Source: Escherichia phage Esco_phi_B-01. Taken from it: a stretch of 64,000 nt of DNA. Numbering within the stretch: position 1 is the stretch's first letter; every line of letters starts with the position of its first letter. The stretch is taken from sequence record OP292222.1; one strand, written 5' to 3'. Both the position numbers and the translations under genes were made by a program. The notes below the pieces were generated by a model, which was given only the letters and a program-made list of their open reading frames with translations, made no database searches and was not told where the DNA came from. Below, one piece after another: positions 12,436-33,219 of this stretch.

Positions 12436-13444
12436 TACAGGCGACTGGCACCTTGGAGTTAAGAACGACGACCCTTGGGTCCAAAACATTCAATTGACCG
12501 GCATTAAAGATGCTATCAATTATTCTAAAGCAAATGGTATTACTGTATGGATTCAATACGGTGATATTTTTGATGTCCGTAAAGCCATTACTCATAAGTG
12601 TATGGAATTTGCTCGGCATATTTCAGATTTGCTTAAAACCAATGGCATCACCATGTATACCATTGTTGGTAACCATGATGCCCACTACAAAAACACCCTA
12701 ACTCCGAATGCTGCTTCTGAAGTTCTGGGTAAATATGACCATATCAAGGTTATTGAGAAACCTACTACGGTTAACTTTGATGGCACCGAAATTGATTTGA
12801 TTCCATGGATGTGTGAAGAAAACACGACTGATATCATGGACCATATCAAAAATACCACAGCAGATTTCTGTATTGGTCATTGGGAATTAAATGGTTTCTA
12901 TTTCTATAAAGGAATGAAATCTCACGGTTTAGAACCTGATTTCCTTAAAAAGTATAAGCAAGTTTGGTCAGGCCACTTCCATACTATTTCTGATGCAGCA
13001 AACGTCAAGTACATTGGTACTCCATGGACCCTTACTGCAGGCGATGAGAACGACCCTCGTGGTTTCTGGATTTTCGATACCGAAACTCATAAAATGGATT
13101 TCATCATTAACGAAACCTGTTGGCATCGTAAGATTCATTATCCTAATGCGACTATCGATTACAAAGATTTTACAAATATCGCAGTTCGTGTTATAGTCGA
13201 TAAAATCGATGACGGCCTTACTAAGTTTGAATCAGAACTTGAAAAGGTTGTTCACTCTTTACGTATTGTGTCTAAGGTAGATAATAGTGTTGATATCGAT
13301 GATTCTGAAGAGGAAGATGAAGTTAAATCCCTCTTGGATATGATGTATGATTATATCGACGCCCTTCCTGATGGCCACACTGAAGAAGACGTTAAAGCCC
13401 TTAAGACTATGGCCGCACAACTTTATAATGAGGTTACACGATGA
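12422..13444 (+). CDS. 47: recombination nuclease subunit gp47 (Mre11/SbcD-like)
   Basis: MKILNTGDWHLG phosphoesterase motif; synteny upstream of gp46. Confidence 0.9.
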   Translation: MKILNTGDWHLGVKNDDPWVQNIQLTGIKDAINYSKANGITVWIQYGDIFDVRKAITHKCMEFARHISDLLKTNGITMYTIVGNHDAHYKNTLTPNAASEVLGKYDHIKVIEKPTTVNFDGTEIDLIPWMCEENTTDIMDHIKNTTADFCIGHWELNGFYFYKGMKSHGLEPDFLKKYKQVWSGHFHTISDAANVKYIGTPWTLTAGDENDPRGFWIFDTETHKMDFIINETCWHRKIHYPNATIDYKDFTNIAVRVIVDKIDDGLTKFESELEKVVHSLRIVSKVDNSVDIDDSEEEDEVKSLLDMMYDYIDALPDGHTEEDVKALKTMAAQLYNEVTR

Positions 13445-17782: not shown

Positions 17783-18345
17783 GTCTTTTTGATGATGACG
17801 TTGAACTGAATGAACATGAAGTTGCTTGGAAACAACGTAACGACGCTGCTATTCAAGCCTTGGCCGATTCATTTAAAGAAAAGGCTGAAAACGAATTGTT
17901 TGCCATTATGAACGATATCACATACGGTAAAAAACAACGTAACTTGGCTCAATCAGAAAACTATAATCAATTTTGGCTAGATAATAGTTTGAGCCAGCAC
18001 GTAGATTGCATTATGCAAGCCGCGATGGTTAACTGTCTTAAACTTGACGACCAAAGTCACTTCAATTATCTTTTACATGCTGTTCCTAAGGGTAAGAGAT
18101 TTGGTAAATGGGCTAAGGCCCATGATGATGAAGTTAGTGTAGTTTTTATTACTCGTTTATTGATGAAATACCATTCAATTAATAATGATGACGCTTATCG
18201 TTATCTCGAGACTTATAAAATTAAAGGCCATCTTCCGGCAATGCTTAAGAAGATGAAAGGGTTGGTTACGGACGAGTTCCTGAAATCCGTAACTAAAAAT
18301 GTGAAAGAACAAAAAGATTTGAAAAAGAAAGCATTGGAATGGTAA
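17773..18345 (+). CDS. 62: clamp loader small subunit gp62
   Basis: synteny 44-62-regA; overlapping start typical of T4. Confidence 0.85.
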   Translation: MAISLFDDDVELNEHEVAWKQRNDAAIQALADSFKEKAENELFAIMNDITYGKKQRNLAQSENYNQFWLDNSLSQHVDCIMQAAMVNCLKLDDQSHFNYLLHAVPKGKRFGKWAKAHDDEVSVVFITRLLMKYHSINNDDAYRYLETYKIKGHLPAMLKKMKGLVTDEFLKSVTKNVKEQKDLKKKALEW

Positions 18346-18351
18346 ATTAAA

Positions 18352-18714
18352 ATGATTGAAATTACTCTGAAACAACCTGAAGACTTCTTGAAAGTGAAAG
18401 AGACCCTAACTCGTATGGGTATCGCTAATAATAAAGAAAAGAAACTATATCAATCCTGTCACATTTTGCAAAAGCAAGGACGGTATTATATTGTCCACTT
18501 TAAAGAGATGTTGCGTATGGATGGCCGCCAGGTAGATATCGATGGTGAAGACTACCAACGCCGTGATTCCATAGCCCAGCTTCTTAAGGATTGGGGACTT
18601 ATTGATATTGTAGACGATTCTGAATTGTTCGAAATTACTAATAATTTCCGTGTCATTTCATTTAAACAGAAAAATGACTGGGAACTGCTGTCTAAGTATA
18701 CGATTGGTAATTAA
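18352..18714 (+). CDS. regA: translational repressor RegA
   Basis: similarity recalled to T4 RegA; position directly upstream of gene 43. Confidence 0.88.
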   Translation: MIEITLKQPEDFLKVKETLTRMGIANNKEKKLYQSCHILQKQGRYYIVHFKEMLRMDGRQVDIDGEDYQRRDSIAQLLKDWGLIDIVDDSELFEITNNFRVISFKQKNDWELLSKYTIGN

Positions 18715-18722
18715 GTTTAAGC

Positions 18723-18743
18723 AAAGGGACTTTGGTCCCTTTT
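18723..18743 (+). terminator. hairpin + T-run (aagggac-tttg-gtccctt-ttt) after regA; may double as leader structure of gene 43
   Basis: stem-loop with T5. Confidence 0.6.
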
Positions 18744-18802
18744 TGGAGTATAATTATTCATCAACAAACAAAAGACAATCACTCGTCTATAAAGGAAATG
18801 AA

Positions 18803-21514
18803 ATGCAAGAATTCTATTTGACAGTCGAACAAATCGGTGATAATATTCTCGAACGTTACATCGATAAAAATGGTAACGAACGTAGTCGTGAAGTTCCTTA
18901 CAAGCCTACAATGTTTATGCATGCCAACCCAGAGCAAGCCGTAAAATATATTGACATCTACGGTAAGGGCTGTGTTAAGAAAGAATTCGATTCAATGCGC
19001 GATGCTTCTCAGTGGATGAAGCGAATGGACGATATGGGTCTCGAAGCCCTTGGTATGGACGACTACAAATTAGCCTATTTGTCTGATACCTATCGTAAAG
19101 AAATCAAGTATGATTCTTCCAAGATTCGTATTGCTAACTTCGACATCGAGGTAACATCTCCTGATGGATTCCCTGAACCTGCCCAGGCTAAACATCCTAT
19201 CGATGCCATTACTCACTACGACTCGATTGACGATAAATTCTATGTATTCGACCTTTTAGTTTCACCTTATGGTACGGTCGAAGAGTGGTCGATTAAAATC
19301 GCTGAGAAACTCCAAGACGAAGGTGGTGACGAAGTTCCACAAGAAATCATTGACAAAATCGTTTATCTTCCGTTTAATTCTGAAGAAGAAATGATGCTTG
19401 AGTATCTGAATTTCTGGCAACAGAAAACTCCTGTGATTTTGACTGGATGGAACGTTGAATCATTTGACGTGCCATACGTTTATAACCGTCTGAAAAATCT
19501 GTTTGGTGAGAACACTGCTAAGCGATTAAGCCCGCATCGTAAGACTCGTGTTAAAGTTATCGAGAATATGTACGGTGTTCGTGAAATTATTACACTGTTC
19601 GGTATTTCTGTTCTGGATTATATCGACCTTTATAAAAAATTCAGCTTTACTAACCAGCCTTCTTATTCTCTGGATTATGTTTCTGAATATGAATTGAAAG
19701 TAGGTAAGTTGAAATATGATGGTCCTATCTCCAAGTTACGTGAGACAAACCACCAACGATATATTTCCTATAACATTATCGACGTATATCGTGTTGTGCA
19801 GATTGATATGAAACGCCAGTTCATTCTTCTTAGTCTGGACATGGGTTATTATGCTAAGATGCAGATTCAGTCAGTGTTCAGTCCAATTAAGACTTGGGAC
19901 GCTATTATCTTTAATAGCCTTAAAGAACAGGGTAAAGTTATTCCTCAGGCCAAATCGCATGCGGTTCAACCTTATCCAGGTGCTTTCGTTAAGGAACCTA
20001 TTCCTAACGCGTACAAATATGTAATGAGTTTCGACCTTACATCTCTGTACCCAAGTATCATTCGACAAGTGAATATAAGCCCAGAGACCATCGCAGGCAC
20101 ATTCGCCAACGCACCGATACATGAATATATTGCCGGAACTGCTCCGCGTCCTAGCGACACCTACAGTTGCTCTCCTAACGGCATGATGTACTATAAAGAC
20201 CGTGATGGTGTGATTCCTACAGAAATCACGAAGGTGTTCTTACAACGTAAAGAACATAAAGGTTATATGCTCGCAGCTCAACGTAATGGTGAGTTAATTA
20301 AAGAAGCATTAGAAAATCCTAATCCATCTGTTGATAGTCCACTGGATATCGATTATCGTTTCGACTTCTCTGACGAAATCAAAGCCCAGATTAAAAAATT
20401 GTCAGCATCTTCTTTAAAAGAAATGTTGTTCAAAGCCGAACGTACTGAAGTCGCAGGTATGACTGCTCAGATTAACCGTAAGTTGCTTATCAACTCCCTT
20501 TATGGTGCACTTGGTAACGTATGGTTCCGTTACTATGACCTCAGGAACGCAACTGCAATCACATTGTTTGGTCAAATGGCCCTCCAATGGATTGAACGTA
20601 AGGTTAACGAATATCTGAATAGCGTATGTAAGACCGAAAACCAGAAGTTCGTGCTCTATGGTGATACCGACTCCATTTATGTTAAGGCCGATGCAATCAT
20701 CAATAAAGTAGGCGAAGATAAATTCCGTGATACTAACCACTGGGTTGACTTCTTAGATAAATTTGCACGTGAACGTATGGAACCAGCTATTGATGCAGGC
20801 TTCCGTGAGATGTGTGAATACATGAACAATAAACAGCACTTGATGTTCATGGACCGAGAAGCTATCGCAGGTCCTCCACTTGGTTCTAAAGGTCTTGGTG
20901 GATTCTGGACAGGCAAGAAACGTTATGCACTGAACGTTTGGGACATGGAAGGTACTCGTTATGCCGAACCACACTTGAAAATCATGGGTCTCGAAACTCA
21001 GAAATCAAGTACACCTAAAGCGGTTCAGAAAGCACTGAAAGAATGTATCCGTCGTATGCTTCAAGAAGGCGAGGCCTCTTTGCAAGAGTATTTCAAACAG
21101 TTTAATAAGGAATTTAACGAATTAGACTATGTAAGCATTGCTGCAGTATCCAGTGCTAACAACATCGAGAAATATAATGAAGGTGGTTTCCCTGGTTCTA
21201 AATGCCCGTATCACATCAAAGGTTGCTTAGCTTACATGCGTGCTTCTGCTGGTGATTTGACTATGCCTCGTATCGTTGATGGTGAAAAGGTATATGTACT
21301 GCCACTTAAAGAAGGCAACCCGTTCGGTGAAGCTTGTATGGCATGGCCGTCAGGTATTGAACTTCCGATTCAGATTCGTGACCAAGTCCTCCGTTGGATG
21401 GACTACAACGTACTGTTCCAAAAGACCTTTATCAAACCCCTGACCGGTTTTACTGAGTCTGCTAAAATCGACTACGAGAAAAAAGCAACATTATTTGACA
21501 TGTTTGACTTTTAA
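18803..21514 (+). CDS. 43: DNA polymerase gp43 (family B, with 3'-5' exonuclease)
   Basis: Exo I FDIEV, motif A DLTSLYPSII, motif C YGDTDS; N-terminus MQEFYLTVEQIGDNI matches T4/RB69-type gp43; start taken at ATG after SD aagga (track ORF starts upstream). Confidence 0.97.
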   Translation: MQEFYLTVEQIGDNILERYIDKNGNERSREVPYKPTMFMHANPEQAVKYIDIYGKGCVKKEFDSMRDASQWMKRMDDMGLEALGMDDYKLAYLSDTYRKEIKYDSSKIRIANFDIEVTSPDGFPEPAQAKHPIDAITHYDSIDDKFYVFDLLVSPYGTVEEWSIKIAEKLQDEGGDEVPQEIIDKIVYLPFNSEEEMMLEYLNFWQQKTPVILTGWNVESFDVPYVYNRLKNLFGENTAKRLSPHRKTRVKVIENMYGVREIITLFGISVLDYIDLYKKFSFTNQPSYSLDYVSEYELKVGKLKYDGPISKLRETNHQRYISYNIIDVYRVVQIDMKRQFILLSLDMGYYAKMQIQSVFSPIKTWDAIIFNSLKEQGKVIPQAKSHAVQPYPGAFVKEPIPNAYKYVMSFDLTSLYPSIIRQVNISPETIAGTFANAPIHEYIAGTAPRPSDTYSCSPNGMMYYKDRDGVIPTEITKVFLQRKEHKGYMLAAQRNGELIKEALENPNPSVDSPLDIDYRFDFSDEIKAQIKKLSASSLKEMLFKAERTEVAGMTAQINRKLLINSLYGALGNVWFRYYDLRNATAITLFGQMALQWIERKVNEYLNSVCKTENQKFVLYGDTDSIYVKADAIINKVGEDKFRDTNHWVDFLDKFARERMEPAIDAGFREMCEYMNNKQHLMFMDREAIAGPPLGSKGLGGFWTGKKRYALNVWDMEGTRYAEPHLKIMGLETQKSSTPKAVQKALKECIRRMLQEGEASLQEYFKQFNKEFNELDYVSIAAVSSANNIEKYNEGGFPGSKCPYHIKGCLAYMRASAGDLTMPRIVDGEKVYVLPLKEGNPFGEACMAWPSGIELPIQIRDQVLRWMDYNVLFQKTFIKPLTGFTESAKIDYEKKATLFDMFDF

Positions 21515-21516
21515 GT

Positions 21517-21546
21517 GTTTACATACCACATGGAACGTGGTATTAT
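21517..21546 (+). promoter_or_regulatory. early promoter, PeSL-like (GTTTAC ... TATTAT)
   Basis: motif. Confidence 0.55.
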
Positions 21547-21576
21547 CCTTCCTATCAACTACATGAGGAAATTATA

Positions 21577-21813
21577 ATGGAAGCTTTAATCGTTAGTGCT
21601 GGTGTTTTAGGATTCGGTTCTCTGGCTATTATGTTCATTGGTTACTTTTTACCATGGATTCTAGCTCTTTTGCGAGGCACCCGTAGCAATGTCGGAATCT
21701 TCTTCCTTAATCTCTTGTTAGGATGGACGATGATTGGTTGGGTAGTGGCTTTAATCTGGGCCATCGTCGCTGAACGTAAATCAAACGCACAAATCATTAT
21801 CGTTAAACAATGA
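21577..21813 (+). CDS. imm: superinfection immunity membrane protein Imm
   Basis: two hydrophobic helices; position downstream of 43 as in T4. Confidence 0.8.
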   Translation: MEALIVSAGVLGFGSLAIMFIGYFLPWILALLRGTRSNVGIFFLNLLLGWTMIGWVVALIWAIVAERKSNAQIIIVKQ

Positions 21814-21947
21814 AGATAATTATTTTATTTCTTATAATGACTGCCTTTACCGTTTATTGGGCAGTGGCAATTCCTCCAATGATTCCAACATTAATCATAG
21901 GATGGATTATTCTTATAGCACAAATTAAGTATAACTGTTTTAATTGA
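21810..21947 (+). CDS. small hydrophobic peptide (45 aa)
   Basis: ATGA overlap with imm stop; entirely hydrophobic. Confidence 0.35.
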   Translation: MKIIILFLIMTAFTVYWAVAIPPMIPTLIIGWIILIAQIKYNCFN

Positions 21948-21954
21948 GGATATT

Positions 21955-22455
21955 ATGAAAAAGTTAATTATCGCAATGAGTATGCTCCTATCAGGTTGCG
22001 CGGTCCAATACGGTGATGCAGTTTCGGCTGATGAAGTTGGTAAAGCTCGTATTGCAGCTGAACAGAAACAATTCGACGGCGAAATGAAATTCCGTGCCGG
22101 TTCTGGACTTGTGTATACCCGAGCTAATAATCAATGTGGTAATAACTGTGCAAAATATGCTCAAAGGGAAATCGAATTCCAACGTGAACAAGAGTCTAAG
22201 CGTGAAGAGGTACTAGCCAAACACCAGGCAGAAATGAAGCGCCAAGATGATTTGTACAAAAAGCAGAAACTGTATTCTATGTGTGTAAACCATATCAATC
22301 TACAGATTTCTGTCCATGAGGCTCGTTATTACGAAATGCTCGAAACCGAGAGCTTCGATAAAGCTCGTGATTATAAGAAACAAATCAACAAGCTTAAGAC
22401 CAAAGTGCCTGCTGCAGTAGAACAGTGCATGGAATACGGTAAAGATAAGATTTAA
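21955..22455 (+). CDS. predicted lipoprotein (signal peptide with lipobox LLSGC), coiled-coil rich
   Basis: N-terminal MKKLIIAMSMLLSGC. Confidence 0.6.
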   Translation: MKKLIIAMSMLLSGCAVQYGDAVSADEVGKARIAAEQKQFDGEMKFRAGSGLVYTRANNQCGNNCAKYAQREIEFQREQESKREEVLAKHQAEMKRQDDLYKKQKLYSMCVNHINLQISVHEARYYEMLETESFDKARDYKKQINKLKTKVPAAVEQCMEYGKDKI

Positions 22456-26892: not shown

Positions 26893-28065
26893 ATGTCTGA
26901 TTTAAAATCCCGTTTGATTAAAGCTTCTACTTCTAAAATGACTGCCGACCTGACCAAATCTAAATTGTTTAATGGTCGTGACGAAGTTCCTACTCGTATT
27001 CCTATGCTTAATATTGCATTGGGTGGTGCGTTGAATGCAGGCTTACAATCAGGTTTGACAATCTTTGCTGCACCGTCTAAACACTTTAAAACGTTGTTTG
27101 GATTAACTATGGTTGCGGCATATATGAAGAAATATCCAGACGCAATTTGCTTGTTCTATGACTCTGAATTCGGTGCTTCAGAATCTTATTTCCGTTCAAT
27201 GGGTGTTGACCTGGAACGTGTGGTTCATACGCCAATCCAGTCAGTCGAACAACTGAAGGTTGACATGACCAACCAATTAGAAGAAATTACTCGTGGCGAA
27301 AAGGTTATTATCTTTATCGACTCCATCGGTAACACTGCTTCTAAGAAAGAAACCGAAGATGCTTTGAACGAGAAAGTTGTAGGTGATATGACTCGTGCTA
27401 AGTCTCTGAAATCTCTGTTCCGTATCGTAACACCTTATCTGACTATCAAGGATATTCCTTGCGTAGCAATTAACCATACGGCTATGGAAATTGGTGGAAT
27501 GTATCCTAAAGAGATTATGGGTGGCGGTACTGGTATTCTGTACTCTGCTTCTACCGTATTCTTTATCTCTAAACGTCAGGTTAAAGATGGTACCGAGCTC
27601 ACTGGTTATGACTTCACCCTGAAGGCCGAAAAATCTCGTACTGTTAAAGAGAAATCAACGTTCCCAATTACTGTGAACTTTGAAGGTGGTATCGACCCAT
27701 TTAGTGGTCTGCTCGAAATGGCTACTGATATTGGCTTTGTTGTGAAACCTAAAGCTGGTTGGTATAATCGTGCATTCCTTGACGAAACCACGGGTGAAAT
27801 GGTTCAAGAAGAAAAATCATGGCGTGCTAAAGCTACCGATTGTGTCGAGTTCTGGGGACCGCTGTTTAAACATGCTCCATTCCGTGAAGCAATCGAGAAT
27901 AAGTATAAGCTCGGTGCAATTAATTCTATTAAAGAAGTCGATGATGCGGTGAACGACCTTATTAACTCTCGTGTCTCTAAGAACGTTGCAGTTAAATTGA
28001 GTGGCGACACTCAAAGCGCAGCTGATATCGAAAACGATTTAGAAGAGATGGATTTAGATGACTGA
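26893..28065 (+). CDS. uvsX: recombinase UvsX (RecA-like)
   Basis: near-identity recalled to T4 UvsX N-terminus (MSDLKSRLIKASTSK...) and throughout. Confidence 0.95.
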   Translation: MSDLKSRLIKASTSKMTADLTKSKLFNGRDEVPTRIPMLNIALGGALNAGLQSGLTIFAAPSKHFKTLFGLTMVAAYMKKYPDAICLFYDSEFGASESYFRSMGVDLERVVHTPIQSVEQLKVDMTNQLEEITRGEKVIIFIDSIGNTASKKETEDALNEKVVGDMTRAKSLKSLFRIVTPYLTIKDIPCVAINHTAMEIGGMYPKEIMGGGTGILYSASTVFFISKRQVKDGTELTGYDFTLKAEKSRTVKEKSTFPITVNFEGGIDPFSGLLEMATDIGFVVKPKAGWYNRAFLDETTGEMVQEEKSWRAKATDCVEFWGPLFKHAPFREAIENKYKLGAINSIKEVDDAVNDLINSRVSKNVAVKLSGDTQSAADIENDLEEMDLDD

Positions 28066-28387
28066 TTTATCTGATTTAGATAATTTTGTTAAAGATACTG
28101 AAGAGGGTCCTAGTGACCCTCGTTATTATGAGAAATCGTTAGATATAATCCGTAAGTCAATGGGTTCTGTTAAGCAGGAAATTATGCTTACATTACCTGA
28201 TGGCACTGCTCACATCGTTTATGTGATGAATATTGTTATTGAGAAAGATGGAAAAGTGTCGGTTGATTTCGGAACGCCTTCCGAAGACCGAAAAGAAGAG
28301 CTAGCGCTTCATGTAGAAAAATGTGTTACAATGCAAATACAAGAAGAACTGGATAAAATTAAATCTAAGAGGTGGTGGAAGTGGTAG
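28058..28387 (+). CDS. 40: gp40-like protein
   Basis: synteny uvsX-40-41; size. Confidence 0.7.
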   Translation: MTDLSDLDNFVKDTEEGPSDPRYYEKSLDIIRKSMGSVKQEIMLTLPDGTAHIVYVMNIVIEKDGKVSVDFGTPSEDRKEELALHVEKCVTMQIQEELDKIKSKRWWKW

Positions 28388-29811
28388 AAACTATTTTGGC
28401 TCAACTGCTAGGCAATAGTGATTATTTCACTAAGGTCTGGCCTTATATGAATGATTCTTATTTTGACCAGGGTCCGGCAAAGACCCTTTTCAAAGAAATC
28501 AAAAAACATGTCAATGAATATAATGCGGTGCCTTCTAAAAATGCTTTGAGTATTGCATTAGATAACAGCACCCTTTCAGAAGTTGAACATCAAGGAGCTA
28601 AAGAGCTTTTAAATTCTCTGAATGCAGGCCCTGAAGACCAAGAATGGTTGGTTAAAGAGACAGAGAAATATGTTCAGAAGGCAGCGATGTATAATGCCAC
28701 TTCAAAAATTATTGAAATTCAAACTAATGCCGACCTTCCGGTTGAGCAACAAAATAGAAAACTCCCAGGTATTGGTGCTATTCCAGATATCATGCGTGAT
28801 GCATTATCGATTTGTTTCGATTCTGAATTAGGCCATGACTGGATGGATGACTATGAAGAACGTTTTAAAAGTTATTCTGATAAAGCACGTAAGGTTCCAT
28901 TCCGTCTTAATATTCTGAATAAGATTACTAAGGGTGGCGCTGAGTTTGGTACTGAAAACGTATTGTTAGCAGGAACAAACGTAGGTAAGTCTCTGGGTCT
29001 GTGTTCATTGGCTGCTGATTACCTTCAATCCGGTTACGATGTTCTTTATATCTCCATGGAGATGGCAGAGGAAGTATGTGCTAAGCGTATCGATGCTAAC
29101 CTTCTAGATGTATCACTGGATGATATTGATGATGGTCACGTCTCATGGCCTGAATATAAAGCCAAGATGGATAAGTGGCGTTCAACTGCTACTTTAGGTC
29201 GTTTAAAGATTAAACAGTATCCTACTGGTGGTGCTAATGCCGATACATTCCGTGCATTATTAAACGAATACAAGCTCAAACAAAACTTTGTCCCACAGGT
29301 CGTTATCGTCGACTACTTGGCCATCTGTGCTTCATCCCGTACGAAAGTTTTCTCTGAAAACAGTTATGGATTGATTAAGATGGTTGCCGAAGAACTACGT
29401 GGACTTGCAGTAGAGAAGAAATTATTGTTGTGGACTGCAGCCCAGACTACTCGTGGCGCGAACGTTGCAGCCGAAATCGATATGGCTGATATCGCTGAAT
29501 CCTTTGGTATTGCACATACTGCAGACTTCATGTTAGGTGTGGTCGAGACAGAAGAGTTTGCTCAGATGGGTATGCAGATGGTTAAGCAGCTTAAATCCCG
29601 TTATGGTGATAAGAGCTACTACAACAAATTTAAGATTGGTGTTAAGAAAGGAAACCAGCGTTGGTATGAAGTTGAAGACGATTCTAACCCAGGCCCAGTG
29701 AACACCGTTCGTGAGGCTACAGGTGAAATGAATCGCCAAGCAGAGGTCAATCGTCAGTCGCGTGTTAATAGAAGCGATTTAGACGATTTAGCAGCATCTA
29801 TCAAATTTTAA
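28381..29811 (+). CDS. 41: replicative DNA helicase gp41 (DnaB-like)
   Basis: Walker A GTNVGKSLGL; similarity recalled to T4 gp41; GTG start (28372/28375/28381 all possible). Confidence 0.92.
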   Translation: MVETILAQLLGNSDYFTKVWPYMNDSYFDQGPAKTLFKEIKKHVNEYNAVPSKNALSIALDNSTLSEVEHQGAKELLNSLNAGPEDQEWLVKETEKYVQKAAMYNATSKIIEIQTNADLPVEQQNRKLPGIGAIPDIMRDALSICFDSELGHDWMDDYEERFKSYSDKARKVPFRLNILNKITKGGAEFGTENVLLAGTNVGKSLGLCSLAADYLQSGYDVLYISMEMAEEVCAKRIDANLLDVSLDDIDDGHVSWPEYKAKMDKWRSTATLGRLKIKQYPTGGANADTFRALLNEYKLKQNFVPQVVIVDYLAICASSRTKVFSENSYGLIKMVAEELRGLAVEKKLLLWTAAQTTRGANVAAEIDMADIAESFGIAHTADFMLGVVETEEFAQMGMQMVKQLKSRYGDKSYYNKFKIGVKKGNQRWYEVEDDSNPGPVNTVREATGEMNRQAEVNRQSRVNRSDLDDLAASIKF

Positions 29812-29832
29812 GGAGCTTCGGCTCCTTTTTTG
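29808..29832 (+). terminator. rho-independent terminator (ggagc-ttcg-gctcc + T7)
   Basis: stem-loop + T-run. Confidence 0.75.
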
Positions 29833-29840
29833 TTTTAAGG

Positions 29841-29869
29841 GTTTACTTCTCCTGTAGGCATGATACTAT
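29841..29869 (+). promoter_or_regulatory. early promoter, PeSL-like (GTTTAC, 17 bp, TACTAT)
   Basis: motif; repeat family. Confidence 0.6.
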
Positions 29870-29895
29870 AGACCTGTCAACTAATGGAGAACAAA

Positions 29896-30213
29896 ATGAA
29901 AACCATCGACTGTAAAGCGGAATATAAAGTGTATTACCATGGAAGTTGTAGTGTTGCTAATATTGGTAATATGCTTTGTCCTCCTGAGGAAACAGGAGTT
30001 CTGTCTGAAACTGGTCGTAAGAAAAACCTGAACCGTGTGTTCTTTACTGAAGATATTGGTTTGGCTAAGATTTATGCTGGCCGAGCTGCTCGTTCGGTGG
30101 GAGGAGAACCTCGTCTTTATCGTGTAATTGCTCCGGTAGATGTGGTTTGTTTAAATGATACCAAAGGCGCTACGGTTTATCACGCTGAATGGGCCTTCTG
30201 TGAGGAAATCTAA
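29896..30213 (+). CDS. hypothetical protein (105 aa)
   Basis: ORF after PeSL; start at second ATG with SD atggag. Confidence 0.5.
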   Translation: MKTIDCKAEYKVYYHGSCSVANIGNMLCPPEETGVLSETGRKKNLNRVFFTEDIGLAKIYAGRAARSVGGEPRLYRVIAPVDVVCLNDTKGATVYHAEWAFCEEI

Positions 30214-30417
30214 ATGTTTAAATTAGAAATCGTAGTGTTTATTGGTTGGTTTGAAAATGGTAATATGTTTACCAAAGAAACTGCGCTGGATGTTAGTGAC
30301 CAAAAAATGATTGAATGGGTTACAGTGCAGTATGCAGAAGTGAATAATGCACTGGTGAAAGCCTTTGTTAATGACAATAAAGTTTTTGAATATGATGCCC
30401 GCATTGAGGAAATCTAA
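30214..30417 (+). CDS. hypothetical protein (67 aa)
   Basis: ORF. Confidence 0.45.
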   Translation: MFKLEIVVFIGWFENGNMFTKETALDVSDQKMIEWVTVQYAEVNNALVKAFVNDNKVFEYDARIEEI

Positions 30418-30558
30418 ATGGAAGAGGTTGAATGTGTAGTATGTGGTTGTTCGGTATGTGAAGACCAGGCGGTATTTGATGCTTGGGACAACGCAACTTG
30501 TTTAGACTGCGATAGCGAATACGAAGAAATTGCTCATAAACATGAAGACGAGGAATAA
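30418..30558 (+). CDS. Cys-rich small protein (46 aa; CVVCGCSVC ... CLDC)
   Basis: ORF below track threshold; zinc-ribbon-like cysteines. Confidence 0.35.
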   Translation: MEEVECVVCGCSVCEDQAVFDAWDNATCLDCDSEYEEIAHKHEDEE

Positions 30559-30798
30559 ATGAATATTGTATTAATGAAGCCGACCTCTAGCTCTTTTTGG
30601 AATAAATCTTTTGGTAAGCATAATATGTTTATCCAACGCACCGTAAGCAGCTGGGAACTAGTTCTTTCAGTCGGTCACAACGATTATGAACAAGAATACG
30701 TAGAGTTCTTCGAATTTCCTGTGAAGCCTACTAAGCGTCAGATTCGTCAGACCAAACATAAATTCCGTAAAATTTATTTGGAAGATTCATTAAAATAA
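30559..30798 (+). CDS. hypothetical basic protein (79 aa)
   Basis: ORF. Confidence 0.45.
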   Translation: MNIVLMKPTSSSFWNKSFGKHNMFIQRTVSSWELVLSVGHNDYEQEYVEFFEFPVKPTKRQIRQTKHKFRKIYLEDSLK

Positions 30799-30799
30799 A

Positions 30800-30829
30800 G
30801 TTTACAACGGTCTATGGTAGTGATACTAT
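30800..30829 (+). promoter_or_regulatory. early promoter, PeSL-like
   Basis: motif; repeat family. Confidence 0.6.
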
Positions 30830-30857
30830 AGACCTATCAACTAATGAGGAGTTAAAA

Positions 30858-31151
30858 ATGAAAAAGTTATTAATCGCAGCAATCCTTACAGTAGCATCAT
30901 GTGGTACAGCTCCAGTTACGGCTGGATTGGATAAAGACCTTTGTGAATGGTCTATGACCGCAGACCAAGAATCAGTTGAACATCAGATTTACGCTGATAT
31001 CATGAATATCACTAAACGTGACCGTCCTGATATGGTTAAAGAAGTATCTGACCAATTGGCTTCTAGCGGTGTTATGCAGTATAACTATGTTCTGTACTGT
31101 GATGCTAATTTCGATAACAAAAATATTGTTAAAGAGGTGATAGGTGAATAA
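30858..31151 (+). CDS. predicted lipoprotein (lipobox VASC)
   Basis: N-terminal MKKLLIAAILTVASCG. Confidence 0.55.
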   Translation: MKKLLIAAILTVASCGTAPVTAGLDKDLCEWSMTADQESVEHQIYADIMNITKRDRPDMVKEVSDQLASSGVMQYNYVLYCDANFDNKNIVKEVIGE

Positions 31152-31584
31152 GATTAACAGAAATTTGGTTATCAAAAAGCTCCGTTGCAAAAATCCAAAT
31201 GCACAAGCATACAGGATGTTTTGGAGCGACGACCACCAGTACCTGGGTTATTTTCTTGTTGATAGTGATGATAGAATTACAATGGCCCATAAACTTCTTA
31301 ACAGAGAATTAAACCATTGGCAAGAACTTATTGCGGTAAGGTCTAAATTATTTTCATGTAATGCAATGCATCAATTGGTTTATTTTTTCGCTGAAGGTAT
31401 TCCTGACAAGGTTGAGTTTGATGGATTCGAATTTAAAGATATCCACCCGGACAACGAATTGAACGACCGCGTTAATATGGATATCCCTAGCAAGTATATC
31501 AAAAACAGTCTGTTGAAAATTCTGGAAGCTCCGGTTTATTCAATTGACGACCAGATTTTTAATGCCTTTATGAACCGAGGTTAA
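31144..31584 (+). CDS. hypothetical protein (146 aa)
   Basis: ORF. Confidence 0.5.
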   Translation: MNKINRNLVIKKLRCKNPNAQAYRMFWSDDHQYLGYFLVDSDDRITMAHKLLNRELNHWQELIAVRSKLFSCNAMHQLVYFFAEGIPDKVEFDGFEFKDIHPDNELNDRVNMDIPSKYIKNSLLKILEAPVYSIDDQIFNAFMNRG

Positions 31585-31585
31585 T

Positions 31586-31777
31586 ATGACTGCAATGTGT
31601 ACGGGCTCTAAGATTTCTGTATTCGAACTGTTCGAAGAATATGAAATCGTATCAAAAGACCAAGAAGCTATCCATATTATTGCCGGTGATGGCGTAACTT
31701 GGATTATCCCACTTTACCACGAAGATACATATGAAGTCACTGATGCAAATGGTGATAAAGCTATTTTCGTAATATAA
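31586..31777 (+). CDS. hypothetical protein (63 aa)
   Basis: ORF. Confidence 0.45.
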   Translation: MTAMCTGSKISVFELFEEYEIVSKDQEAIHIIAGDGVTWIIPLYHEDTYEVTDANGDKAIFVI

Positions 31778-31780
31778 ATA
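31773..31780 (+). promoter_or_regulatory. T4-type late promoter TATAAATA
   Basis: exact octamer; unusually close (13 nt) to downstream ATG. Confidence 0.45.
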
Positions 31781-31793
31781 AGGCCAGGAGCCT

Positions 31794-31955
31794 ATGAAAT
31801 CTTTTAAAGAAGTTATGAACGAAGATATGGTCGCAGGCGATGCTGGTGGAAATCCATCTAATATTGCCTCCGGAACTACCTCAGGCGCAGTCGTCAACAA
31901 AGGGCCTGAACAAATCCCATCTAAAAAGCGTAAAGAAAAATCCGAAAACGAATGA
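31794..31955 (+). CDS. small late protein with capsid-targeting-sequence-like N-terminus (MKSFKEVMNE)
   Basis: resembles CTS MKTYQEFIAE of T4 internal proteins; SD aggag; late promoter upstream. Confidence 0.45.
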   Translation: MKSFKEVMNEDMVAGDAGGNPSNIASGTTSGAVVNKGPEQIPSKKRKEKSENE

Positions 31956-31993
31956 TATAATGGCTCTATTAATTTAGAGCCCAAGGAAAAATA

Positions 31994-33022
31994 ATGTCAT
32001 ATGTCGATAGAGAATTTGCTGTACGTGCCTTGAATTACCAACCTAAATTCAGACAAGTAACTGGTAGTGATTTTAAATTAAACTGTCGTTGTCGTGTATG
32101 CGGCGACTCCCAAAAGGATGAGAACAAAGCTCGATTCTGGGCCTATCCAGCCAATGACGGCTCTGTAATGCTACACTGTTTTAACTGTGATTATTCGGCA
32201 GGAATTAAGAAGTACCTATACGAATATGAGCCTGATTTATATCGCGAATATATTCTTGAGAAACATAAAGAGCAATCGTTCGGGAGACAAGCTGCGCCTA
32301 AGGTGGAGATATCTGAAAAAATTAAAGCTAAGATGCCTGTCATTGAAAAGCTTAATTTCTGTGAACGATTAGATAGAATGCCGAAAGACCATCCTATTAT
32401 TAAGTATGTAACTCTGCGGTGCATTCCTGAAAATAAATGGAATCGGTTATGGTTTACTAAAGAATGGCCTGCATTGGTGAATTCTGTTAATCCAGGGACA
32501 TATTCCAAAGAAATGCCTGAACCACGTTTGGTTATTCCAATTTTCAATAAGAATAAACAAATTGAAAGTTTTCAGGGCCGAGCCTTACGTAAAGATGCTC
32601 CACAAAAATATATTACAATAAAAGCTCATGACCAAGCTACAAAAATATATGGAATGGATACAGTTGACGAACGTCAATTGGTGTGGGTAATGGAAGGTCC
32701 TATTGATTCATTATTCGTACCTAATGCAATAGCAATTACTGGTGGGTCGTTGGACTTGGCTATGGTTCCATGTAAAGAAACTCGTGCCTGGGTAATGGAC
32801 AATGAACCCCGTCATCCTGACACAATTAAGCGTATGCAACGATTAGTTGATGCCGGCGAAAGGGTCCTATTCTGGGACAAGGCCCCATGGCCTTCTAAAG
32901 ATATAAATGATATGGTTATGAAAGATAAAGCTGATATAAATGATGTATTGGCATATATGAAAGCTAATATAGCCCAAGGGTTAATGGCAAAAATGAGGCT
33001 TTCAAAATATTCTAAAATTTAG
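31994..33022 (+). CDS. 61: DNA primase gp61
   Basis: N-terminal zinc ribbon (CRCRVCGDS ... CFNCDY), TOPRIM-like core; synteny. Confidence 0.88.
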   Translation: MSYVDREFAVRALNYQPKFRQVTGSDFKLNCRCRVCGDSQKDENKARFWAYPANDGSVMLHCFNCDYSAGIKKYLYEYEPDLYREYILEKHKEQSFGRQAAPKVEISEKIKAKMPVIEKLNFCERLDRMPKDHPIIKYVTLRCIPENKWNRLWFTKEWPALVNSVNPGTYSKEMPEPRLVIPIFNKNKQIESFQGRALRKDAPQKYITIKAHDQATKIYGMDTVDERQLVWVMEGPIDSLFVPNAIAITGGSLDLAMVPCKETRAWVMDNEPRHPDTIKRMQRLVDAGERVLFWDKAPWPSKDINDMVMKDKADINDVLAYMKANIAQGLMAKMRLSKYSKI

Positions 33023-33219
33023 ACAGGAACTCCGCTAAAGAATCCAATTATGCTTAATACGTGTTCCATTGTAACCGCTGGTAAAATTACCCCTTGGCTA
33101 GCGGCTACAGGAACTACTAAAAGATTCCAAAGGAATACGTCTAGCGCAAGAAAACCTAACATCATTTTCTTGTCTTTCTTTTCAGCCAATTTCCAGATTT
33201 GGTAAAAAATACTACCCAT
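33019..33219 (-). CDS. small membrane protein (66 aa) on opposite strand
   Basis: minus-strand ORF with strong SD aggagga 5 nt upstream of ATG; hydrophobic. Confidence 0.5.
   Translation of the reverse strand: MGSIFYQIWKLAEKKDKKMMLGFLALDVFLWNLLVVPVAASQGVILPAVTMEHVLSIIGFFSGVPV

Follow-up and report, generated by a model that had tools for sequence, protein, structure and literature searches.

What are eight small open reading frames (ORFs) doing between the replicative helicase gene, 41, and the primase gene, 61, of Escherichia phage Esco_phi_B-01 (OP292222.1)? In the stretch of this genome that was analyzed (64,000 nucleotides, hereafter the window), the stop codon of gene 41 at 29811 and the start of gene 61 at 31994 are 2182 bp apart. 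The original prediction for this DNA rightly counted about 2.2 kb and eight small ORFs, and took the interval for a hyperplastic accessory island separating two genes that are adjacent in T4. They are not adjacent there: in the T4 record gene 61 occupies 17935-18963 and gene 41 occupies 20612-22039, and the 1648 bp that separate them hold dmd, 61.4, sp, 61.2 and 61.1. The interval in Esco_phi_B-01 is very probably the Dhakavirus counterpart of this T4 cluster, a long-standing slot, between 41 and the conserved 61.1-61 pair, for small, early-expressed genes that guard the infection against toxins of the host and against rival phages.

In transcription order, T4 carries 41, dmd (61.5), 61.4, sp (61.3), 61.2 (adfA), 61.1 and 61, which is the order and strand found in Esco_phi_B-01 (Table 1). 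Half of the eight ORFs have T4 orthologues, at amino acid identities (direct comparison) of 58% for ORF2 (Dmd), 44% for ORF4 (gp61.4), 69% for ORF5 (Spackle, or Sp) and 74% for ORF8 (gp61.1), and a fifth, ORF6, occupies the AdfA slot. The Pfam matches to Dmd, DUF7279 and T4_Spackle all lie well above their cut-offs, and dmd, 61.4, sp and 61.1 are already named in the annotations of phages JS10 and JS98. GTTTAC-type promoter sequences stand in T4 at both equivalent junctions, 41/dmd and 61.4/sp (the latter reading GTTTAC...GATACTAT), and the gene after sp ends in an identical 14 residues in both phages. The two clusters differ in that Esco_phi_B-01 has three additional ORFs (ORF1, Arr-type; ORF3, Cys-rich; and ORF7), two of which are common to RB69-like phages and two to Pectobacterium phage PM2. 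The body of AdfA is replaced in Esco_phi_B-01 by an unrelated N-terminal part of 130 residues, a terminator follows gene 41, the interval is the longer of the two, and an exact TATAAATA that T4 lacks precedes 61.1. Four to five of the eight ORFs are part of a common, vertically inherited frame.

The opposing explanation is a recently acquired accessory island, mobilized by early-promoter/stem-loop (PeSL) units, between otherwise adjacent helicase and primase genes. Gene content does differ among relatives, the left edge does carry a terminator-plus-promoter unit whose promoter cassette recurs seven times in the window, and one relative, ABTNLsp5, has an extra ORF between promoter sequences at that edge. 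In addition, ORF1 and its homologues from other genera share 87-89% identity, compared with 68-84% for gp41. An island of this kind is nonetheless improbable, as the orthologous cluster in T4, with its identical order, largely refutes it. By megablast of positions 29700-32100 against GenBank phages, the window belongs to a T4-type coliphage of the JS10/JS98-like genus Dhakavirus; 53 records cover at least 80% of this query, the closest being Escherichia phage JS10 (98.5% identity over the full length), and the 35 full-length records listed are 91-98% identical. Nearly all listed records are JS98-like (Dhakavirus), and the block is conserved in more than 50 Dhakavirus records. The base composition of the interval gives no sign of foreign origin (GC 0.35-0.41 and flat across the region), one of the two promoter cassettes is internal rather than a boundary, and the right edge has none. 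Recent horizontal transfer of ORF1 itself may be suggested by its high identity, but its whole family is 65-89% identical across hosts and the high identity may instead reflect functional constraint. The region is best described as variable but old, vertically inherited within the genus and homologous to that of T4, and not as a recent insertion.

How variable it is emerges from the region downstream of gene 41 in 16 other phages, the comparison that the original prediction had proposed. Across T4-like genera the 41-61 interval measures between 270 and 3506 bp, with a gene set that is not the same in all of them. The distance is 270 bp in AS4 and 542 bp in Aeh1 (both Aeromonas phages), 1315 bp in JD18, 1332 bp in Merlin, 1610 bp in E26, 1648 bp in T4, 1715 bp in PM2, 3104 bp in KP1 and 3506 bp in phiC120. 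Within Dhakavirus it spans 2182-3095 bp, with differing gene content between the same flanking core genes. In the stretches shown for a Vibrio phage and a cyanophage, gene 41 is not followed by gene 61, and in Acinetobacter phage Lazarus gene 61 is not reached in the 5 kb fetched downstream of gene 41, where a gp61.1-like match lies near the end of the locus.

One gene is exempt from this variation. Of the ten sampled genera in which 61 lies downstream of 41, nine have a gp61.1 homologue directly upstream of 61, and the tenth has one near the end of the locus; AS4 and Aeh1 have no other gene between 41 and 61. Since gp61.1 is constant next to 61, the variable slot runs from 41 to 61.1, which makes ORF8 part of the conserved frame. 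The "hyperplastic" half of the original description therefore stands, in that gene content varies between T4-like phages, and the notion of an insert falls with the orthologous cluster of T4. The constancy of gp61.1 is also an argument for regarding the small genes, and gp61.1 above all, as accessory factors of helicase and primase co-transcribed with 41 and 61; another is that strand and position are shared with uvsX, 40 and 41 upstream and with 61 and 56 downstream. Such a replicative role for the set is very unlikely: Dmd, Sp and AdfA have established functions outside replication (PMC7677548, PMC11257639), gp61.1 has a core homologous to a segment of the capsid protein and not to any replication protein, and the content varies too much to represent core cofactors.

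Within the slot, content changes through gain or loss of single genes, either between repeated early-promoter sequences or at very short homologies at gene junctions, and through duplication of dmd and 61.4. ABTNLsp5 has an additional 125-residue ORF between early-promoter sequences, at the site of the first cassette. Both fDHCT2 and ABTNLsp5 carry two tandem dmd paralogues that are 52% identical to each other (fetched stretches L012 713-1111 and L013 1237-1635), a pairing that hints at antitoxins specialized for different RnlA/LsoA-type toxins. JS98-type phages have a 73-residue paralogue of 61.4 (orf29) inserted just upstream of ORF7 at an ATATG junction microhomology, and IME281 and NC-G have a divergent, 98-residue allele of 61.4. 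The promoter cassettes are not found at the borders of the dmd duplication, the orf29 insertion or the 61.4 allele replacement.

These events can be set against the PeSL shuffling model of hyperplastic regions in T4-type phages (Arbiol et al., 2010, PMC2839356; Comeau et al., 2014, PMC4122927). As in those regions, small non-core genes are flanked by core genes, a TTTACW...TAYWAT-type early-promoter motif like the one reported from the T4/PST pair recurs, a predicted stem-loop terminator adjoins cassette 1, and one insertion in the close relative ABTNLsp5 is flanked by promoter sequences. In contrast to them, cassette 2 lacks a terminator, most indels fall at gene junctions with homologies of 5-6 nucleotides or are duplications rather than cassette exchanges, and half of the genes form a stable frame that T4 also has.

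The hairpin after gene 41 (7-bp stem, UUCG loop and T-run; -10.5 kcal/mol, z = -3.0) and cassette 1 together have the form of a PeSL-type unit. Cassette 1 has its GTTTAC at 29841-29846 and its TGaTACTAT box ending at 29869, and cassette 2 has the corresponding elements at 30800-30805 and ending at 30829. The 25-nucleotide core of the cassette occurs seven times on the + strand of the window (at 1007, 29862, 30822, 37403, 51235, 54888 and 55232) vs 0 expected (none in 100 shuffles). The promoter call is made because the cassette is repeated and T4 has GTTTAC-type sequences at both equivalent junctions. Cassette 2, whose -10 box lies within an 11-bp inverted repeat (hairpin -16 kcal/mol, z = -3.2), stands in the middle of the interval, before sp, with no adjoining terminator or T-run. 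Given this mid-interval position, the region consists of two predicted early transcription units rather than a promoter-bounded insert, and the original picture of an interval bounded by a terminator and two PeSL promoters survives only as regards the terminator after 41 and the reality of both cassettes. The first comprises the terminator, cassette 1 and then the Arr-type ADP-ribosyltransferase-like protein, Dmd, the 46-residue Cys-rich peptide and gp61.4, linked by TAAATG stop-start junctions; the second runs from cassette 2 through Spackle, the AdfA-slot protein, the 63-residue ORF7 and gp61.1 to gene 61.

In all seven cassettes the invariant stretch continues for about 20 nucleotides beyond the -10 box into the transcribed leader (TGATACTATAGACCTATCAACTAATGGAG), which suggests a conserved 5'-leader element besides the promoter. 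A copy of the cassette in JS10 also precedes an unannotated, internal-protein-like ORF. At the other end of the interval, TGATATAAT forms a perfect extended -10 box, and the hairpin that follows it just before the start codon of gene 61 (-11.2 kcal/mol, z = -3.05) could, together with the box, act as a promoter or as a translational control element for the primase gene.

A protective role for the Dhakavirus counterpart of the T4 cluster is suggested by the genes it shares with T4. T4 Dmd is an antitoxin against RnlA and LsoA, and by orthology ORF2 would neutralize RNase toxins of the RnlA/LsoA type. Spackle is a periplasmic inhibitor of the gp5 tail lysozyme that acts in superinfection exclusion (PMC7677548), and ORF5 would likewise block the tail lysozyme of superinfecting phages; its Cys29 and Cys81, the two disulfide cysteines, are conserved with T4 Sp. 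ORF5 had been labeled a lipoprotein, and it does have a lipobox-like VASC at residues 12-15. T4 Sp has LASC in the equivalent place, even though its mature form of 75 residues, cleaved after residue 22, is soluble and periplasmic (PMC7677548), and the label is better replaced by Spackle. The third protective gene of the T4 cluster, 61.2, encodes AdfA, an anti-DarT factor whose deletion mutants are viable in T4 (PMC11257639).

The protein in the AdfA slot, ORF6, is a different case. It matches AdfA only in its last 14 residues, SIDDQIFNAFMNRG, the one part aligned by BLASTP, and these are 100% identical to T4 and 93% to phiC120. The Pfam model AdfA (PF23813) meets it at residues 132-146 only (E = 0.0067; 16.3 bits vs a cut-off of 27), short of full-length AdfA. 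This tail is common to the AdfA proteins of T4 and Mosigvirus and to an ORF6 family that is otherwise unrelated to them and almost confined to Dhakavirus; in that family the last 30 residues are near-invariant even between members only 35% identical overall. Over the 14 codons ORF6 differs from T4 at six nucleotides, all synonymous, which argues for selection on the peptide rather than on the DNA. Two other accounts of the tail were rejected: a shared DNA or RNA element, because of these synonymous differences, and a diverged full-length AdfA, because of the 14-residue BLASTP match and the absence of AdfA among the BFVD matches. The AF2 model of ORF6 is of low confidence (predicted local distance difference test, pLDDT, 66), and a BFVD fold search with it returned the protein's own family and a 118-residue relative only, with no AdfA-like fold. 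We infer a common C-terminal functional tail to which different N-terminal bodies can be attached; the new N-terminal part of the AdfA-slot protein probably serves to bind a host toxin, with the C-terminal tail of AdfA kept.

Several considerations weigh against the interval as an early-expressed protective cluster equivalent to that of T4. ORF6 is not detectably an AdfA homologue beyond its last 14 residues. The term "counter-defence cluster" is an extrapolation from Dmd, Sp and AdfA, with the functions of ORF1, ORF3, gp61.4, ORF6, ORF7 and gp61.1 forming no part of its basis. The promoters, the terminator and the late motif are predictions from sequence. A generic sigma-70 scan found 16 sites, not enriched over the 17.1 in shuffled sequence, and missed cassette 1; it was not used as evidence. 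Finally, a single observed indel, the 125-residue ORF of ABTNLsp5, lies between promoter repeats. The others fall where two genes meet, which means that PeSL-type recombination does not account for most of the change visible here.

That the small ORFs are real genes follows from a PHROG family match for each of the eight (E <= 5e-30). All lie on the + strand and are tightly packed, through TAAATG or TAATATG junctions or short overlaps. Rfam families searched at a permissive threshold in 29600-32200 gave no match, PADLOC models gave nothing credible for any of the eight proteins, and NCBIfam gave sub-threshold matches only, including rifampin_ARR for ORF1 (E = 0.07). ORF3, the Cys-rich 46-residue peptide of the original prediction, proved genuine: it is 100% identical in JS10, where it is unannotated, and 76% identical at the equivalent slot in PM2, and it is annotated in fDHCT2 and IME281 and has no T4 counterpart. 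Its cysteines follow the pattern CxxCxCxxC, 13 residues, CxxC, and it is a probable zinc-ribbon mini-protein. ORF7, common to Mosigvirus and absent from T4, is 71% identical in phiC120 at the equivalent slot. It is hardly credible that ORF3, ORF7 and the late motif before ORF8 are chance frames or motifs devoid of function. The missing annotation of ORF3 in JS10 would fit chance, and so would the motif: TATAAATA overlaps the stop codon of ORF7, would leave a leader of only about 8 nucleotides, and is absent upstream of T4 61.1, with about 7.5 copies expected by chance per 64 kb (three are found, another of which precedes soc). Other genera have TAAATA variants at this place. The two frames, in contrast, have PHROG matches below 1e-29, are conserved at equivalent slots in other genera and are joined to their neighbors by TAAATG or TAATATG junctions.

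ORF1 opens the first unit. Because its homologues are mostly 105 residues long, as is ORF1 read from the ATG at 29896 downstream of the cassette's GGAG, translation most likely starts there and not at 29884. T4 lacks the gene, which is RB69 orf040c according to the JS98 annotation; phiC120 (a Mosigvirus) and PM2 have it at the equivalent slot, and Lazarus has it elsewhere downstream of gene 41. The family comprises 115 homologue clusters from T4-like phages that infect many different hosts (identity 46-99%, in most cases at least 65%). H15, Y60, R63 and a GG pair do not vary among them, and E103 is near-invariant (at least 90% conserved); H15, Y60 and E103 would be candidates for the catalytic His, Tyr and acidic residue of an ADP-ribosyltransferase fold. 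The AF2 model (pLDDT 86) has among its top Foldseek matches in the PDB typhoid toxin PltA, Arr-2, RES and ParT (TM-scores 0.44-0.56, E ~1), none of them significant, and the family profile found no match among PDB sequences. ORF1 itself scores 15.1 bits on Pfam Arr-ms (PF12120), under the cut-off of 25, and six of 37 family members match that model, the best at 5.3e-5.

An indirect route is the ORF1 profile run against 1.84 billion representative proteins, which finds 251 relatives, many of them domains in proteins of up to 3924 residues. Two such giant proteins (P0162 and P0187) match the profile at 1e-29 and 1e-26, and the matching stretch scores 27.5 and 29.4 bits on Arr-ms, above the cut-off; in other giant proteins the ORF1-like domain lies beside ART-PolyVal (ADP-ribosyltransferase) and NUDIX domains. 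With the fold search weak and the PDB profile search empty, it is on this route that the ADP-ribosyltransferase assignment rests. ORF1 shares the YHG[ST] motif, the invariant Tyr and the near-invariant C-terminal Glu with Arr and with the ADP-ribosyltransferase domains of polyvalent proteins (Iyer et al., 2017, PMC5512222), and Arr-2 is among its top, if weak, fold matches. It differs from them in being a stand-alone early gene of T4-like phages of only 105 residues that falls below the Arr-ms cut-off. On balance, ORF1 is rather likely to be a stand-alone Arr-type ADP-ribosyltransferase-like domain, its activity being predicted.

The conserved gene at the other end of the slot has a capsid-protein relative. 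A profile of ten gp61.1 family members, run against all PDB sequences, matches only the major capsid protein of T4, gp23 (E = 1.1e-7), over residues 57-102, which comprise the maturation cleavage site (LTE/AE) and the N-arm; Met98 of gp23 has been described as an N-arm residue (PMC7136217). An [LIVM]-x-E motif immediately precedes the conserved MVAGD core in nine of the ten sampled gp61.1 members, Aeh1 departing from it. The family has 554 clusters, most of them of 153-170 residues, and some members are named "major capsid protein" in databases; a literature search on gp61.1 returned only passing mentions, in two papers.

In the short T-even and Dhakavirus forms the motif falls near the N-terminus, which reads MKSFKEVMNE in ORF8 and MKTFKEFIKE in T4 gp61.1. 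The internal proteins of T4 begin MKTFKEF (IPI) and MKTYQEFIAE (IPII and IPIII), and those of JS10 begin MKTYKEFITE, MKTYNEFIAE and MKTYQEFIKE. ORF8 is the only ORF in the window that fits the pattern M-K-[ST]-[YF]-x-E-[FV]-[IM]-x-E, which in 24 kb of JS10 is found in the three internal-protein ORFs alone. The original prediction had spoken of a late ORF bearing a capsid-targeting sequence (CTS), and the decapeptide does fit such a pattern; it had also counted the gene as accessory, where it is part of the conserved frame. The N-terminus of ORF8 thus resembles a capsid-targeting, prohead-protease-type site, ending like those of the internal proteins in [LIVM]-x-E, and T4 gp61.1 has MKTFKEF exactly as IPI does. 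Unlike the internal proteins, gp61.1 has a copy of the gp23 N-arm for a body and not an unrelated cargo, is encoded in an early replication cluster, and in most members carries its cleavage-type site internally. Cleavage and packaging of gp61.1 are plausible. A bolder and doubtful proposal is that gp61.1 is a near-universal, gp23-derived small protein that would be cut by the prohead protease and be packaged or serve as an N-arm stand-in (during assembly, or to divert, as a decoy, host sensors that detect capsid protein), with the 41-61.1 slot as a counter-defence hotspot holding new anti-defence factors such as the Arr-type ADP-ribosyltransferase and the AdfA tail on a new body.

JS10 offers a further observation on internal proteins. 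Between trna.4 and 57B, in the ipI slot (record 58000-82000, fetched stretch L019, - strand, ORF start at locus position 12787), lies an unannotated ORF of 97 residues that begins MKTYQEFIKE, a capsid-targeting-type N-terminus, and that is probably an unannotated internal protein.

Table 1. Features in and around the 41-61 interval; positions refer to the window unless a fetched stretch (L number) is given.
Feature	Position	Strand	Evidence or remark
uvsX	26893-28065	+	followed by gene 40
Gene 41, replicative helicase, left flank	28372-29811	+	99.6% identical to JS10 gp41, 65% to T4 gp41
Terminator-like hairpin with T-run	29810-29835	+	directly after gene 41 stop codon
Early-promoter cassette 1	29841-29886	+	GTTTAC, 17 nucleotides, TGaTACTAT, conserved leader, GGAG ribosome-binding site
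ORF1, 105 residues, Arr-type ADP-ribosyltransferase-like (predicted)	29896-30213	+	phrog_2110, 1.7e-60
ORF2, Dmd	30214-30417	+	Pfam Dmd 5.1e-20; phrog_2102
ORF3, 46 residues, Cys-rich	30418-30558	+	phrog_13952, 4.7e-30
ORF4, gp61.4 homologue (DUF7279)	30559-30798	+	Pfam DUF7279 2.7e-18
Early-promoter cassette 2	30800-30846	+	GTTTAC, 18 nucleotides, TGaTACTAT, conserved leader
ORF5, Spackle (Sp)	30858-31151	+	Pfam T4_Spackle 2.7e-42
ORF6, 146 residues, gp61.2/AdfA slot	31144-31584	+	GTG start; phrog_8539, 1.7e-94
SIDDQIFNAFMNRG tail of ORF6	31543-31584	+	
SIDDQIFNAFMNRG tail, T4	L002 4133-4174	-	
SIDDQIFNAFMNRG tail, Mosigvirus	L005 9186-9227		
ORF7, 63 residues	31586-31777	+	phrog_3249, 1.9e-33
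TATAAATA, T4 late-promoter motif	31773-31780	+	14 nucleotides upstream of ORF8; motif evidence only
ORF8, gp61.1 homologue, 53 residues	31794-31955	+	T4 gp61.1 orthologue
gp61.1 family members	L005 9449-9916; L006 7272-7736; L016 7492-7959		
TGATATAAT box, then hairpin GGCTCTA-N6-TAGAGCC	31953-31981	+	just upstream of gene 61
Gene 61, primase, right flank	31994-33022	+	100% identical to JS10 gp61, 61% to T4 gp61; followed by gene 56

Beyond the interval, between genes 61 and 56, an ORF for a membrane-protein-like product of 66 residues lies at 33019-33219 on the - strand, opposite to all its neighbors. By tblastn it has homologues in JS10 (94%, unannotated there), PM2, JD18 and Merlin, and small ORFs on the matching strand are annotated at this place in PM2, JD18, Merlin and phiC120. 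T4 has a similar 66-residue ORF (NC_000866 17738-17938; fetched stretch L002 2739-2939, +) in the unannotated 309-bp gap between dam and 61.

JS98 and JS10 already carry annotations for this locus, and variable regions of this kind with repeated early promoters have been published for T4-type genomes. The gain lies in a correction: T4 does not have 41 and 61 side by side, and it is the slot from 41 to 61.1 that varies. Three observations at the protein level stand as leads rather than established findings. These are a highly conserved, 105-residue Arr-type ADP-ribosyltransferase-like early protein that T4 lacks, a 14-residue C-terminal tail apparently under protein-level selection and common to AdfA and an otherwise unrelated protein, and the homology of gp61.1 to the N-arm of the capsid protein. 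Experimental work on the counter-defence genes of therapeutic T4-like phages could start from them.

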